Shown here: one piece after another, positions 10,458 through 17,225 of the stretch
Position numbering within the stretch: position 1 is the stretch's first letter
Layout: each line of letters begins with the position of its first letter
Virus record (IMG/VR): IMGVR_UViG_3300016474_001145
Coordinates: 51,808-71,807 of that record
Length of the DNA: 20,000 bases
DNA from: an uncultured virus (IMG/VR IMGVR_UViG_3300016474_001145)
Lineage: Duplodnaviria > Heunggongvirae > Uroviricota > Caudoviricetes
Direction: 5' to 3' (one strand)
Program-made: the position numbers and the translations under genes
The notes under the pieces: generated by a model
The model's input: the letters and a program-made list of their open reading frames with translations, nothing else
What the model was told of the DNA's origin: nothing
Databases searched by the model: none

Positions 10458-11858
10458 ATGAGTTCAAAGATTGAAACTGTAATTCTACAGAATCTAATCC
10501 ACAATGATGATTTTATGCGAAAAGCGATCCCGTTTATAAAGCGGGATTACTTTTCTGACACTAATGAACAAAAGATCTATGACCAGATAAAAAAGTTTAT
10601 TGATGATTTCAATGCTGTGCCTAATACAGATGCACTTATAGTTGCATTTCAAAATGATAAATCTTTAACTGACGATCAGTATAAAGAAATCATACAATAT
10701 GTAAATGAACTTACACCTACAGAACATAATAGAGACTGGTTACTAACTGAGACTGAAAAATTTTGTAAGGATAAAGCTTTATATAATGCGATACTTAATT
10801 CTATTTCCATTATTGATGGTCGTGATAAAAGCCTGTCAACCGACGGAATCCCACAGTTACTCCAAGACGCTCTCGCCGTATGTTTCGACAACAATGTAGG
10901 GCATGATTATATTGATAATGCTCAGTCAAGATATGATTTTTATCATAAGGTAGAATCAAGAATACCGTTTGATCTAGACTACTTCAATAAAATCACAAAT
11001 GGTGGCCTACCAAATAAGACATTAAATGTAGTACTTGCTGGTACTGGTGTTGGTAAATCCTTATTCATGTGCCATGTTGCAGCATCTATTTTAGCTCAAG
11101 GTAAAAATGTCTTATATATTACTTTAGAGATGGCAGAGGAAAGAATTGCTGAACGTATTGATGCCAATCTAATGAATATAACAATGGATCAACTAAAGGA
11201 TTTACCTCGAGCACTTTTTGAAAATAGAATAGAAAAGATAAGAGACAAGACAACCGGCAAACTAATCATTAAGGAATATCCTACAACCAGTGCGCATGTA
11301 GGACATTTTAAAGCATTACTAAATGAGTTACAGCTAAAGCGTCAGTTTAAACCTGATATGATTATTGTAGACTATCTTAATATTTGCGCATCATCTAGAT
11401 TCAAAGCTGGCGCTAATATCAATTCCTATACTTTAATTAAGTCTATTGCTGAAGAATTACGAGGATTAGCAGTCGAGGAAAATTTGCCTATATTATCTGC
11501 GACTCAAACTACAAGAGGTGGATATGGAAATACTGATGTTGAACTTACTGATACTTCAGAATCATTTGGTCTTCCTGCTACAGTTGATCTCATGTTTGCC
11601 CTCATTGCAACTGAGGAACTTGATCAATTGAATCAGATCATGGTCAAGCAATTGAAAAACAGATATAATGATCCAACAATAAATAAAAGGTTCGTCGTCG
11701 GGATTGATCGAGCAAGAATGAAATTATATGATCTTGAGCAAAATGCTCAGAAAAATTTATCAGATTCAGGCGTATCATTAGACGAATCAAAACTAGAAAC
11801 ATATGATATCAATTCTTTCTTCAAGAAGTCTCGTGATTATTCAGGGATAAAACTATAG
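10458..11858 (+). CDS. 41: Replicative DnaB-like helicase (T4 gp41-like)
   Basis: LAGTGVGKS Walker A, YITLEMAEE, IVDYL, SATQTTR, SESFGLPAT and KNRY motifs. Confidence 0.96.
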   Translation: MSSKIETVILQNLIHNDDFMRKAIPFIKRDYFSDTNEQKIYDQIKKFIDDFNAVPNTDALIVAFQNDKSLTDDQYKEIIQYVNELTPTEHNRDWLLTETEKFCKDKALYNAILNSISIIDGRDKSLSTDGIPQLLQDALAVCFDNNVGHDYIDNAQSRYDFYHKVESRIPFDLDYFNKITNGGLPNKTLNVVLAGTGVGKSLFMCHVAASILAQGKNVLYITLEMAEERIAERIDANLMNITMDQLKDLPRALFENRIEKIRDKTTGKLIIKEYPTTSAHVGHFKALLNELQLKRQFKPDMIIVDYLNICASSRFKAGANINSYTLIKSIAEELRGLAVEENLPILSATQTTRGGYGNTDVELTDTSESFGLPATVDLMFALIATEELDQLNQIMVKQLKNRYNDPTINKRFVVGIDRARMKLYDLEQNAQKNLSDSGVSLDESKLETYDINSFFKKSRDYSGIKL

Positions 11859-13604: not shown

Positions 13605-13675
13605 ATGGGGGAGTGAGCGAGACATGAGAGCTTGCCTATTCTTAAACAACAGTTTGTGCCCCGACGGAGAATAAT

Positions 13676-13861
13676 ATGGGAAGACCTAAAAAAGTAAAAG
13701 AAGTTAAAGCTGAAGTTGTTGCTGTAGAACAAGTTAAGGATGGTACGTTCAAAGGTGAGTATAGTACATCTTTATACAACAATGGAGAGCTAATTAGTTT
13801 TGATATTGATTGGGATATGTTGAAAAAACATGTGCAGAGTGCGACCGTAGGGTATAAATAA
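13676..13861 (+). CDS. Small protein with N-terminal GRPKK (AT-hook-like) motif
   Basis: GGAG RBS; MGRPKKVKEVK. Confidence 0.7.
   Translation: MGRPKKVKEVKAEVVAVEQVKDGTFKGEYSTSLYNNGELISFDIDWDMLKKHVQSATVGYK
13853..13860 (+). promoter_or_regulatory. T4-type late promoter upstream of leader peptide
   Basis: TATAAATA ending 21 nt before the leader ATG. Confidence 0.65.
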
Positions 13862-13881
13862 TAAAAAGAACAGGAGAAGTT

Positions 13882-13983
13882 ATGTTTTGTATGTTACATT
13901 CCTTTAGAATTATTACGGTATCAGGCTATGATAAGCCAGAGTGCCGTGCCACACAAAATCCATGGAGTGTGCTAGAGGGCTAG
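13882..13983 (+). CDS. Putative attenuator leader peptide, 33 aa, containing all 20 amino acids: MFCMLHSFRIITVSGYDKPECRATQNPWSVLEG
   Basis: AGGAG RBS (13872-13876) 5 nt before ATG; TAG at 13981; overlaps alternative RNA helices and precedes an intrinsic terminator. Confidence 0.75.
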   Translation: MFCMLHSFRIITVSGYDKPECRATQNPWSVLEG

Positions 13984-14011
13984 GTAACATACAAAACACA
14001 GTTTTTACCTG

Positions 14012-14046
14012 AAACCCTCGTAGCAGAAATGTTCCGAGGGTTTTTT
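14012..14046 (+). terminator. Intrinsic terminator of the putative attenuator
   Basis: AAACCCUCG/CGAGGGUUU stem extended by AGCA/UGUU, GAAA tetraloop, U-tract 14041-14046. Confidence 0.85.
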
Positions 14047-14071
14047 ATTTTAGAATTGAATATCCTTACAG

Positions 14072-14100
14072 TTGACTCGGGTATCATTAGATGTTAATAT
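14072..14100 (+). promoter_or_regulatory. Sigma70-type promoter for tRNA array
   Basis: TTGACT-17-TAATAT with extended -10 TG; shares TTGACTCGGG with the 12691 promoter. Confidence 0.6.
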
Positions 14101-14170: not shown

Positions 14171-14245
14171 ACCAGGTTAGCTCAGAGGTAGAGCAGTGGA
14201 TCGATAATCCATTGGTCAGTGGTTCAATCCCACTACCTGGTACCA
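14171..14245 (+). tRNA. tRNA-Ile(GAT)
   Basis: Cloverleaf: ACCAGGT/ACCTGGT acceptor, loop TC-GAT-AA, encoded CCA. Confidence 0.9.
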
Positions 14246-14346
14246 TATTGAAGCACACTTGAAGACCCGTCAAGGACCAACGCTACGATGCATAGACATA
14301 TAAGCCGGGGCGAAAAAGTTTGGTATTAGTGTGCTTCAATATGGTA
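14241..14346 (+). ncRNA. Conserved-stem cassette A
   Basis: Perfect 19-bp inverted repeat taccatattgaagcacact/agtgtgcttcaatatggta enclosing 68 nt. Confidence 0.65.
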
Positions 14347-14350
14347 ATAA

Positions 14351-14430
14351 GGGGGATGGGACTGCTTGGGGTGGTCACCGCACTTGCAATGCGGGTATTC
14401 AGATCGGTTCGAATCCGTTATCCTCCACCA
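14351..14430 (+). tRNA. tRNA-Ala(TGC)
   Basis: G3:U70 pair; CCGCA-CTTGCAA-TGCGG arm; CCA end. Confidence 0.9.
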
Positions 14431-14593: not shown

Positions 14594-14597
14594 GTAT

Positions 14598-14647
14598 NNN
14601 NNNNNNNNNNNNNNNNNNNNNNNNNNNNNNNNNNNNNNNNNNNNNNN
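14598..14647. other. Assembly gap (50 N)
   Basis: Run of N within the tRNA array; true length unknown. Confidence 0.99.
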
Positions 14648-14657
14648 CAAGTTTTAT

Positions 14658-14736: not shown

Positions 14737-14821
14737 CTAGGGTTCGCATAGCGGCGATTGCAGCGGCCTCCAAATCCGCCGGTTAAAACCCACGGGGGTT
14801 CGAGTCCCTCACCCTAGGCCA
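14737..14821 (+). tRNA. tRNA-Trp(CCA) with long variable region
   Basis: CTAGGGT/ACCCTAG acceptor, loop CT-CCA-AA, G73, extra arm CGGTTAAAACCCAC. Confidence 0.85.
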
Positions 14822-15326: not shown

Positions 15327-15418
15327 GGAGGGTTAACTAGTCTGGGACTAGCACTGTCTTGAAAACAGATGGATCGGTGATGAGCCGGTTGGAGTTCGAT
15401 TCTGCCATCCCTCCTCCA
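15327..15418 (+). tRNA. tRNA-Ser(TGA)
   Basis: Loop CT-TGA-AA, long variable arm, CCA; bulged T-stem. Confidence 0.82.
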
Positions 15419-15426
15419 ATAAGTGC

Positions 15427-15455
15427 TTGACATTAAATACTAATGTCTATATAAT
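15427..15455 (+). promoter_or_regulatory. Consensus sigma70 promoter inside tRNA array
   Basis: TTGACA-17-TATAAT; GACATTA/TAATGTC inverted repeat overlaps the -35 and spacer. Confidence 0.85.
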
Positions 15456-15583: not shown

Positions 15584-15591
15584 TATAAATA
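15584..15591 (+). promoter_or_regulatory. T4-type late promoter of homing endonuclease
   Basis: TATAAATA preceded by hairpin AAGAGTT...AACTCTT; AGGAG RBS follows. Confidence 0.7.
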
Positions 15592-15616: not shown

Positions 15617-16249
15617 ATGTACTATACAATTTATAAGATTACAAATCAAATTAATGGCAAATTTTATATAGGATCACATAAGACCAAAGATTTGAATGAC
15701 GATTATATGGGTTCGGGAAAATATCTTAGAGTAGCCCAAGAAAAATATGGTATTGAAAATTTTAAAAAAGAAATTCTTTTTATTTACGACAATCCCGATG
15801 ATATGTTTAATAAAGAAAAAGAAATCGTTTCCGAAGATTTTTTAGCTACAGAAAATACCTACAATTTAAAACAGGGTGGATTTGGCGGGTTTGACCTAGT
15901 TAATAAAACTGGGAAGAATTTATATGGAAATAACGGTAAAATAGGTTTTGGTGGCGAAAATCTTATTAAAGGTAGATATAGAAAAATTTCTCAAGAAGAA
16001 AAATCCAAAATTTCTAATACTATGAAAGAAGGATATAAAACAGGTAAATTTTTCCCCCCTTTCAAAGGAAAAACCCATACAGATGATACTAAAAAATTAA
16101 TTGGAAGTAAAAGTTCTATACATCAAGCAGGAAGCAAAAATTCTCAATTTGGAACGATGTGGATTACCAATGGATTAGATAATTTAAAAATACAAAAAAC
16201 TGCTGAGATACCTGAAGGTTGGGTTAAAGGCAGAAAGTTAAAAAAGTGA
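15617..16249 (+). mobile_element. Free-standing GIY-YIG homing endonuclease (Seg-like) with NUMOD3-like motif
   Basis: TIYKITNQINGKFYIGS, YMGSG and YNL motifs; FKGKTHTDDTKKLI; located in a tRNA cluster like T4 segB. Confidence 0.88.
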
Positions 16250-16323
16250 GGGTGGCAGAGTGGTCAAATGCAAGTGCCTGCAAAGCATTACAATCATCGG
16301 TTCAAATCCGATCCCTCACTCCA
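16246..16323 (+). tRNA. tRNA-Cys(GCA)
   Basis: GTGAGGG/CCCTCAC acceptor, loop CT-GCA-AA, U73, CCA. Confidence 0.9.
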
Positions 16324-16329
16324 GTTTAT

Positions 16330-16418
16330 GGGACCTGCCCCTATCAGCGTACTGTAAATCCGTCGTCAGAAAACAGATAGGAAGTAGACAAGTGGAGCGT
16401 TACCACCAGGGCCCACCA
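16330..16418 (+). ncRNA. Rearranged tRNA-Tyr(GTA)-like RNA lacking a canonical D-arm
   Basis: GGGACCT/AGGGCCC-ACCA acceptor, GCGTA-CTGTAAA-TCCGT arm, T-like arm GTGG-AGCGTTA-CCAC. Confidence 0.6.
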
Positions 16419-16422
16419 GATC

Positions 16423-16726
16423 CCCGGACCTATGCCGGTTATCAGTAGGCGCGACAAGACCAGCGTTAGGGGTCTTAGGTTTCTTTTTTCCTCCCTCCGG
16501 GCCATTCATCCGGCAGGGTAAAACAAAAGATAGGACCGTGTCATCCGATAAACAAGACACTGGACAGGGCAATACCTCAATCGGGGCTCTTGGGAAAGAG
16601 TAGCCGATATCATAACACGTGGCCATCAGCGTGTATAAAGGCGGCGAGTCTTAAACGAAGTCGGTGACGGGATAGGTAGAACAGTTACTCCGAAAGTGTA
16701 ACGCCGGATTTTGTAACCGGCAACCA
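16423..16726 (+). ncRNA. Block of unidentified structured RNA(s)
   Basis: GC-richer than coding DNA, many hairpins, units ending in CCA at 16504 and 16726; no credible ORF. Confidence 0.5.
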
Positions 16727-16824
16727 TATTGAAGCACATTCCTGCCGTATTGGTCTACGGTTCGAAAAGCGATAGGACCTAGAGTAACCGCCTAGGGAGT
16801 TTGATGAGTGTGTTTCAATATGGT
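16723..16824 (+). ncRNA. Conserved-stem cassette B
   Basis: accatattgaagcacattc/gagtgtgtttcaatatggt, 19 bp with 2 G-U pairs, enclosing 64 nt. Confidence 0.65.
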
Positions 16825-16947
16825 GAGTAGGAAGTAACTGTGAGCCGACTTGGTGAGGTTGCAGACTAAAGATCAACTTCGACCGCGTAGATAGTCCGGA
16901 CTATCGTTTGAAACGGAAGATGCATCCATCCCCTGCCCTACTGGCCA
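16822..16947 (+). ncRNA. Unidentified CCA-ending structured RNA between cassettes B and C
   Basis: Terminal stem GGUGAGUAGG/CCUACUGGCC then A; internal palindrome GATAGTCCGGACTATC. Confidence 0.45.
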
Positions 16948-17031
16948 TATTGAAGCACATACAGTTCCGCCCGATAGTAAGGGAGATAGCGACTAGCGTT
17001 GAAGGACTGTTTAAGTGTGTTTCAATATGGT
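16944..17031 (+). ncRNA. Conserved-stem cassette C
   Basis: gccatattgaagcacat/gtgtgtttcaatatggt, 17 bp with G-U pairs, enclosing 54 nt. Confidence 0.65.
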
Positions 17032-17077
17032 CTAGGAGTAATTAACCTGTACCATAGTCGGAAGTCATGACTCCGGC

Positions 17078-17212
17078 GATCCGTGGTAGTGTAATGGATA
17101 ACACGCAGCGAGGCGTGGGTTCGAGTCCCACCTGCTCCATCGGGGCAGTAGCTTAGAGGTTAGAGTGCAGCGAAATGAGGGTTTCGAAATCCCTCCCACA
17201 ATGGATCAACCA
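17078..17212 (+). ncRNA. Anticodon-less double-elbow tRNA-like RNA
   Basis: Two D-arms, two T-arms, two acceptor-like stems, no anticodon loop, 3' ACCA. Confidence 0.7.
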
Positions 17213-17225
17213 TAAATATGGTTAA

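Follow-up and report, generated by a model that had tools for sequence, protein, structure and literature searches.

A 20,000-nucleotide stretch of viral DNA (hereafter, the window), located at the end of an IMG/VR virus record of 71.8 kb (IMGVR_UViG_3300016474_001145), was found to carry a compact cassette immediately upstream of its tRNA genes. The cassette, at positions 13853-14046, consists of a T4-type late promoter motif, a short open reading frame (ORF) that encodes all 20 amino acids, and an intrinsic terminator. The parts of the cassette and their geometry, the conserved completeness of the encoded peptide, covariation in the RNA, and the position before a tRNA array were all established by the analyses described below. 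On balance, we slightly favor the reading that the cassette is a ribosome-mediated attenuator, in which the leader gauges the supply of practically every aminoacyl-tRNA, and late read-through into the complete tRNA array is controlled accordingly. It is also possible, and is put forward with somewhat less than even confidence, that the "pangram" leader (about 33 codons, containing every amino acid) acts as a general gauge of decoding capacity, such that depletion of any host or phage tRNA, for example through defenses based on anticodon nucleases, would trigger late re-synthesis of the complete 20-specificity set.

All elements of the cassette lie on the plus strand. The motif TATAAATA (13853-13860), which we take to be a T4 late promoter and which occurs 15 times on the window's strand of the 71.8-kb record (compared with about 10.6 expected), is followed by a Shine-Dalgarno (SD) sequence, AGGAG (13872-13876), located 5 nt before the ATG (13882) of the leader ORF. 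The ORF (13882-13983) comprises 33 codons, 27 of them distinct, and a TAG stop codon at 13981-13983, and the encoded peptide contains 20/20 amino acids, the set being completed by W28. The intrinsic terminator (segments 3 and 4; 14012-14046) consists of a hairpin at 14012-14043 and a T run that ends at 14046. In the minimum free energy (MFE) structure, the RNA forms a single long, multibranched hairpin, in which the SD and the AUG are buried, followed by the terminator. The 5′ arm of the closing helix (13871-13897) covers the SD, the AUG, and codons 1-6, its 3′ arm is the post-stop spacer (13984-14011), and 13883-13897 pairs perfectly with 13984-13998 over 15 bp. Segment 1 (TCCTTTAG, 13900-13907) pairs with segment 2 in this structure of the untranslated RNA, and two hairpins (13914-13948 and 13950-13971) are located within the ORF. 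Segment 2 (13969-13988), the putative 5′ strand of the antiterminator, spans the stop codon, and the complementarity around the stop involves GAGGG (13975-13979) with CCCTC (14015-14019), and AGGTAA (13982-13987) with TTACCT (14005-14010). The predicted folding energy of 13853-14060 is -70.9 kcal/mol, compared with -39.5 +/- 4.4 kcal/mol for shuffled sequences (z = -7.2), and no Rfam family, including the T-box, amino-acid leaders, and small RNAs, matched this region at E values up to 1. An earlier note on this DNA, made from the sequence alone, had described the promoter motif, the AGGAG, the ORF, and three helices, the terminator among them, and all of these coordinates were reproduced base for base, as were the 33 codons with all 20 amino acids (complete by codon 28) and the 27 distinct codons.

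Relatives of the cassette were sought in 269 loci, which were collected around homologues of the neighboring 139-residue gene and of the helicase, and by a scan for the relatives' terminator; querying again with a remote copy of the 139-residue gene yielded mostly contigs that had already been collected. In nhmmer searches, the element was identified in 40 distinct versions from related uncultured T4-like phages, of which 38 were full-length, and a covariance model recovered 36/36 of the sequences given to it. A late-promoter box upstream of the ORF (the pattern accepted TATAAATA, TATATATA, or TATAAATT) and an ORF of 29-42 codons were present in 40/40 distinct homologues. In 38/38 full sequences, the stop codon was separated from the terminator by a spacer of 25-33 nt, and the terminator hairpin had a predicted energy of -9 to -16.5 kcal/mol. 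The terminator hairpin, including its loop, was the best conserved part of the element. It is single-copy in the 71.8-kb record, and each of 31 contigs, some of them 130-222 kb long, contained the pattern of the relatives' terminators once. The tRNA array of the relatives begins 20-284 nt downstream of the cassette, and the first tRNA called was tRNA-Ile(GAT) in 29 of the 36 relatives with a tRNA in view. Most of the lineages that have a 5′ untranslated region contain AAGGA or AGGAG. In several lineages (L021, L031, L079, L081, L091, and L184) an in-frame ATG is located 5-6 nt after TATAAATA, and the late transcript would therefore start at or beside the start codon, given the known distance from T4 late promoters to the transcription start. 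The late mRNA of these lineages would thus be leaderless, with a start codon that would be used only on the late transcript and not on upstream read-through RNA. Among 50,697 records of cultured phages, no true homologue was found of the window's element (megablast and blastn) or of the element of locus L044 (blastn).

The presence of all 20 amino acids in the window's leader is by itself not extreme, and its significance comes from conservation across relatives. The chance of obtaining 20/20 in 33 codons was computed to be about 7e-4 from the amino-acid composition of this genome, and 9 of the 19,653 sliding 33-residue windows in the long ORFs of the genome contained all 20 types (mean, 14.8 types). 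The earlier note had asked whether full coverage is kept despite divergence, and this proved to be the case: among the 35 distinct peptides, 23 contain 20 residue types, 10 contain 19, and 2 contain 18. Clustering at 65% identity divides these peptides into 14 clusters, between which about half of the aligned nucleotides differ, and a complete member is present in 12/14 clusters. When the family's own residues were redistributed among one representative per cluster, 0.1 complete representatives were expected (pooled-composition shuffles), compared with the 9-12/14 observed; the expectation rose to 0.4-0.6 when the conserved core columns were held fixed. The observed completeness was reached by 0/20,000 shuffles in the first set, and by 0/5,000 in each of five resamplings. 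In a drift simulation that started from complete peptides, 19% were still complete after 10% of the sites had been redrawn, 5% after 20%, and 0.3% after 70%. Across all loci, 1,771 distinct ORFs of 28-42 codons begin with ATG; 23 of them contain all 20 residue types, and 20 of these 23 belong to the family.

The residues D, H, K, C, I, and F occupy different positions in different lineages, which looks like loss compensated by gain elsewhere. The leader contains no amino-acid runs, and about 10 residue types occur exactly once. The mean distance of the last unique residue from the C terminus is 4.3 residues, compared with 2.05 in shuffles, a position consistent with the folding model described below. 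With respect to the regulatory codons, all 19 non-Met residue types were retained against drift. When 1.84 billion representative proteins were searched with a profile, nine matches were obtained, consisting of six small homologues and three long unrelated proteins. As judged by eye, one of the small homologues contains 20 types in 34 residues and three contain 19; of the other two, one is identical to a complete peptide already counted, and one, which an N-terminal extension brings to 48 residues, has all 20.

The ORF behaves as a translated sequence whose peptide product is barely constrained. The leader frame was open in 14/14 lineage representatives, compared with 4/14 and 0/14 for the other two frames. 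Differences per codon position were flat (0.53/0.47/0.55), and the ratio of nonsynonymous to synonymous changes within clusters was 257:109. In the inner hairpin, a change from G to D co-occurs with a change from P to S such that the base pair is kept, and the AGGGTT motif at the end of the ORF is retained in two reading frames. No Pfam or PHROGs family matched the leader peptide. What residue conservation is apparent largely reflects RNA pairing, and translation combined with a barely constrained peptide is, at the level of sequence comparison, the profile of a leader ORF.

Covariation supports the ORF-internal helices, the closing helix that joins the start region to the post-stop spacer, and the terminator. 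RNAalifold predicted no pairs on a plain MAFFT alignment of 34 sequences, and the structure used to build the covariance model was obtained from a core of 13-16 sequences. In the model-fitted alignment, which leans towards the model, 88.4% of the cells were paired, compared with 80.6% in shuffles, and changes on both sides were observed in 18/36 pairs. The covariation score was 0.262, compared with 0.141 in shuffles (0/500 reached the observed value) and 0.01-0.07 for slid registers. Both-sided changes were found at 3/3 pairs of helix 1 (columns 27-29 with 217-219) and in 13/17 pairs of helices 2-4, whereas helix 5 varies on one side only. Alignment-free comparisons of cognate and non-cognate partners gave a similar picture for the closing helix, which is lineage-specific: among 14 lineages, cognate arms paired with -10.0 kcal/mol and non-cognate arms with -6.3 kcal/mol, a difference reached in 0/20,000 permutations. 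The stop region also paired more favorably with the cognate terminator 5′ arm and its flank (-13.8 kcal/mol) than with non-cognate partners (-11.35 kcal/mol; p = 5e-5, alignment-free). The corresponding comparison for the duplex of segments 1 and 2 gave p = 0.29, because both strands are conserved.

The potential to form an antiterminator from segments 2 and 3 was found in every lineage, as expected from the earlier note, which had proposed that the stop region sequesters the 5′ arm of the terminator. In the window, the duplex of segment 2 with 14005-14025 has a predicted energy of -21.7 kcal/mol (z = -4.7 compared with shuffles) and takes in 10/11 nt of the terminator 5′ arm. Complementarity between segments 2 and 3 was present in 18/18 representatives, with energies of -8 to -22 kcal/mol (z <= -2.9 in 13/18), and the duplex takes in 5-10 of the 9-11 arm nucleotides. 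In all 18 of these representatives, segment 2 spans or abuts the stop codon. From these comparisons, the antiterminator appears to be a conserved potential rather than a proven helix.

The consequences of ribosome stalling were explored with an equilibrium folding model, in which kinetics are ignored, the ribosome is stalled at one codon after another, and folding is restricted to the RNA located 3′ of it. In the window, the predicted probability of the terminator is 0.89 without a ribosome, falls to 0-0.27 when the P site is at codons 5-23, and is 0.88 at codons 26-33. With the P site at codons 5-23, the terminator arm is predicted to pair upstream with a probability of 0.63-0.90. The terminator probability without a ribosome was 0.82-0.89 in 13/16 lineage representatives. 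For ribosomes in the last ~7 codons it returned to about 0.85, and the three-state switch was clear in 9/16. For the window, the model thus reproduces the logic suggested by the earlier note, in which stalling would lead to antitermination, and arrival at the stop codon to termination.

Downstream of the cassette, 16 tRNAs were called from 14171 up to 19416, the first gene of the array being tRNA-Ile(GAT) (14171-14245). No other gene is located between the cassette and the tRNAs. In 5/5 loci where 23 or more tRNAs could be seen, the array encodes 20/20 specificities, and a complete leader therefore precedes a complete tRNA set. A sigma-70-type promoter (TTGACT-17-TAATAT, 14072-14100) lies between the terminator and tRNA-Ile.

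The mechanism that we propose would operate as follows. In untranslated RNA, the SD, the AUG, and the first codons would pair with the post-stop spacer, segment 1 would pair with segment 2, and the terminator would form. A ribosome that reaches the stop codon would cover segment 2, again allowing the terminator to form. A ribosome stalled at a hungry codon (approximately codons 5-25) would keep the 5′ arm away and leave segment 2 free; free segment 2 would pair with the 5′ arm of the terminator, and RNA polymerase would continue past the early promoter and transcribe the tRNA genes. The sigma-70 promoter of the array would serve its transcription early in infection, and late in infection the attenuator would add tRNA synthesis when any aminoacyl-tRNA is short, for example upon cleavage by a host anticodon nuclease.

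Several observations weigh against this mechanism. One concerns the promoter of the array. A perfect TTGACA-17(16)-TATAAT is located between the terminator and the tRNAs in 29/36 relatives, and a weaker version is found in five relatives of the window's type; locus L014 has no such promoter, with a tRNA 20 nt past the terminator, and locus L073 has a poor match only. With an early promoter of its own, the array can do without read-through, and regulation could act only on transcription that continues from the late promoter. The suggestion of the earlier note that the cassette gates the array is thus restricted to this late component by the sigma-70-type promoter. The codons of the leader are not better matched to the anticodons of the array than those of ordinary ORFs; in 10 loci, the fraction of codons decodable by array tRNAs was 0.53-0.87 for the leader and 0.53-0.82 for ordinary ORFs. 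On the supporting side, the locus is present in riverine and marine metatranscriptomes, and contigs from four metatranscriptome libraries bridge the ORF, the terminator, the promoter, and tRNA-Ile. These contigs leave 13663-13880 of the window uncovered and show no transcript ends, and they are weakly suggestive of read-through, with which they are compatible; they could also represent carried-over DNA.

The distribution of the cassette and the details of the switch add to these reservations. About 16 related loci with the same neighboring gene and tRNAs have no cassette, and at 22/54 array starts both the cassette and any small ORF of diverse composition are missing; no comparable small ORF was found in the cassette-less relatives or at the other array starts, where the best contained 16 residue types. 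In the folding model the switch is weak or partial in 4/16 representatives, and absent in three (L029, L079, and L043). A stall downstream of segment 1 might, moreover, leave pairing of segments 1 and 2 around the ribosome possible. The earlier note had suggested looking for covariation in its three helices; covariation was found in the closing helix and in the internal helices, but not in the core of the antiterminator, where no column-wise covariation was detected (67.7% of cells paired, compared with 67.9% in shuffles), because the terminator arm hardly varies. Within the window's own shallow clade, 2/6 distinct peptides are complete and 4/6 have lost one or two types, an incompleteness that would match neutral drift alone. 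Finally, the earlier note proposed that a stall at any starved codon is sensed, and the residue coverage that this would require is kept for the 19 non-Met types, but not for methionine: internal (elongator) Met is present in only 15/35 peptides, and the initiator therefore supplies the twentieth type.

One alternative is that the cassette is a self-contained late unit making a stable structured small RNA or mRNA (a riboregulator or a dual-function RNA), that the terminator serves mainly to insulate the early tRNA promoter from transcription arriving from upstream, and that the completeness of the peptide serves another purpose. Such a unit would account for the very stable fold (z = -7.2), for the SD and AUG being buried in the MFE structure, and for the terminator hairpin, loop included, being the most conserved part; it would also fit a downstream array with its own consensus promoter, and covariation that is strongest in helices 2-4, which have no obvious role in attenuation. 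We nevertheless regard it as rather unlikely, since it leaves unexplained the open frame in 14/14 lineages, the 19-20 residue types kept against drift, and the stop codon that always lies inside the segment able to pair with the terminator arm; no Rfam family match lends it support. The open frame could instead encode a functional late microprotein of about 33 residues, with the RNA structure serving as mRNA housekeeping. A recognizable residue motif (C..SYG.QPE.FAR.NSW) is common to the lineages, many of which have an SD, and the six small homologues have been called as proteins in public data. The flat variability across codon positions, the excess of nonsynonymous changes, the paired residue changes that restore base pairs (G to D with P to S), and the retention of AGGGTT in two frames speak against selection on such a protein, as do the movement of residue types between positions and the lack of a Pfam or PHROGs match, and the microprotein is therefore judged to be improbable.

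Two further explanations concern the terminator and the output of the cassette. Promoter-early stem-loop (PeSL) elements of T4-like phages consist of a stem-loop followed by an early promoter and occur as dispersed repeats. The terminator of the cassette is likewise directly followed by a consensus early promoter, and a stem-loop with such a promoter behind it was found in 29/36 relatives, such that the two might form a composite recombination or regulatory module of the PeSL type, next to which the ORF is fortuitous. Unlike a PeSL, the hairpin is single-copy per genome and tied to an upstream late promoter and ORF. Its occurrence once per contig (up to 222 kb) and once in the 71.8-kb record is not that of a dispersed repeat, and conservation of the terminator goes hand in hand with that of the ORF, the late promoter, and the completeness, which makes this explanation highly implausible. 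Alternatively, translation of the leader could be sensed with an output other than tRNA transcription, such as the stability or processing of the RNA itself, or a trigger or decoy for host defenses that target tRNAs. The evidence for a translated, composition-selected leader applies equally to this possibility, and with a promoter located downstream it is uncertain whether read-through is needed. It is weakened by the absence of any other gene downstream before the tRNAs, and by the terminator/antiterminator geometry, which is what control of read-through requires, and we give it little weight.

The virus that carries the window is T4-like. It encodes a gp41-type helicase at 10458-11858, by which its nearest cultured relatives are Synechococcus phage S-SRM01 and Methylophilales phage Melnitz (about 62% identity). 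An ORF of 61 residues (13676-13861) sits between the 139-residue gene and the cassette and is absent from the closest relatives, in which the cassette follows the 139-residue gene after about 100 nt. Viral contigs yielded a single weak relative, neither Pfam nor PHROGs gave a match, and the ORF looks like a recent insertion.

Several features within the tRNA array were also observed. The 110-nt spacer between tRNA-Ile and tRNA-Ala (14243-14352) is predicted to form a hairpin with 17 closing base pairs (-36.4 kcal/mol; z = -5.1), for which no ORF or Rfam match accounts; an element for RNA processing and a small RNA are both conceivable. ARAGORN missed a tRNA-like gene (15327-15414), which has a long variable arm and scored 44.4 bits against the Rfam tRNA-Sec model, below the gathering score of 47. 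Its fold presents a UGA anticodon loop, and tRNA-Ser(TGA) follows tRNA-Ser(GCT) after 1-2 genes in relatives; for these two reasons, it is probably a tRNA-Ser(UGA). A GIY-YIG/NUMOD3 (segE-like) homing endonuclease gene (15617-16249) is located inside the array, preceded by a perfect TTGACA-17-TATAAT at 15427 and by TATAAATA at 15584; the insertions at this site and at other points of the array differ among relatives. The approximately 900 bases that follow tRNA-Cys (16324-17225) contain no plus-strand ORF of at least 60 residues except 16260-16448, which overlaps that tRNA, and the only Rfam matches near 17083-17166 are weak, tmRNA- or Y-RNA-like ones (E values of 2e-4 to 0.7), far below gathering scores. 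A masked run of N between tRNA-Lys and tRNA-Gly (~14594-14650; 50 N in the record) occupies the place at which relatives carry tRNA-Glu(TTC). The tRNA-Trp (14737-14821) and tRNA-Ala (14351-14430) genes were called at 85 and 80 nt, respectively, which is unusually long for their isotypes, and tRNA-Trp scored only 41 bits in Rfam; extra nucleotides or small insertions are possible.

Why phages should maintain large arrays of tRNA genes has long been asked. Such arrays have recently been proposed to replace host tRNAs that are destroyed by defense nucleases (PMC10264068, PMC11555353). If the attenuator reading is correct, the cassette would be a built-in sensor that links tRNA shortage to tRNA production, and tRNA arrays of this kind would be a regulated, inducible counter-defense and not just a codon supplement that is expressed constitutively. 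Attenuation by a leader peptide would then have been shown for tRNA genes for the first time, a subject on which no published account was found in the open-access library that was searched, and the cassette would extend this type of control from amino-acid operons and whiB7 to viral tRNA genes. The cassette may, in that case, offer a compact natural part for reporting translation stress.

Among known regulatory systems, the T-box likewise couples tRNA status to the choice between terminator and antiterminator before genes of translation supply. A T-box binds one specific uncharged tRNA directly and needs no ORF, whereas the phage element has a conserved ORF and no T-box match in Rfam. Another parallel is provided by the trpL, hisL, leuL, thrL, and ilv leaders, with which the phage element, as judged from the folding model, would share the logic of alternative 1:2, 2:3, and 3:4 pairings. 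In the textbook model of trp attenuation, the position of the stop codon allows a ribosome that terminates there to block the antiterminator, and transcription also ends when the RNA is untranslated; both features appear to be matched in the predicted behavior of the phage RNA. The enterobacterial leaders contain runs of 1-3 cognate amino acids and precede biosynthetic operons, whereas the phage leader has no runs and precedes tRNA genes.

The closest published analogue, in mechanism only, is the attenuator of mycobacterial whiB7, in which an upstream ORF (uORF) is described as sensing general translation stress, including shortage of many amino acids, tRNAs, and synthetases (PMC10274678). The uORF of M. 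smegmatis whiB7 contains 19/20 amino acids, and uORF variants without Trp or without His lose the matching starvation response, which shows experimentally that the composition of the uORF sets the starvations that are sensed (PMC10274678). The statement of the earlier note that no equivalent was known to it goes too far in view of this system, which senses shortage of many amino acids (PMC10274678). In both cases, a short uORF is combined with a Rho-independent terminator and an alternative antiterminator, a putative one in the phage, and stalling anywhere within a diverse uORF leads, or in the phage would lead, to read-through. The two systems have no sequence relationship: no Rfam match was found for the phage element, and tRNA genes, not whiB7, are located downstream. 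The whiB7 attenuator is bacterial and controls the gene of a transcription factor, whereas the phage cassette is viral, stands behind a late promoter, and precedes tRNA genes. The whiB7 uORF is also described as longer and enriched in alanine (PMC10274678), compared with a phage ORF of 29-42 codons in which near-complete amino-acid coverage is under selection.

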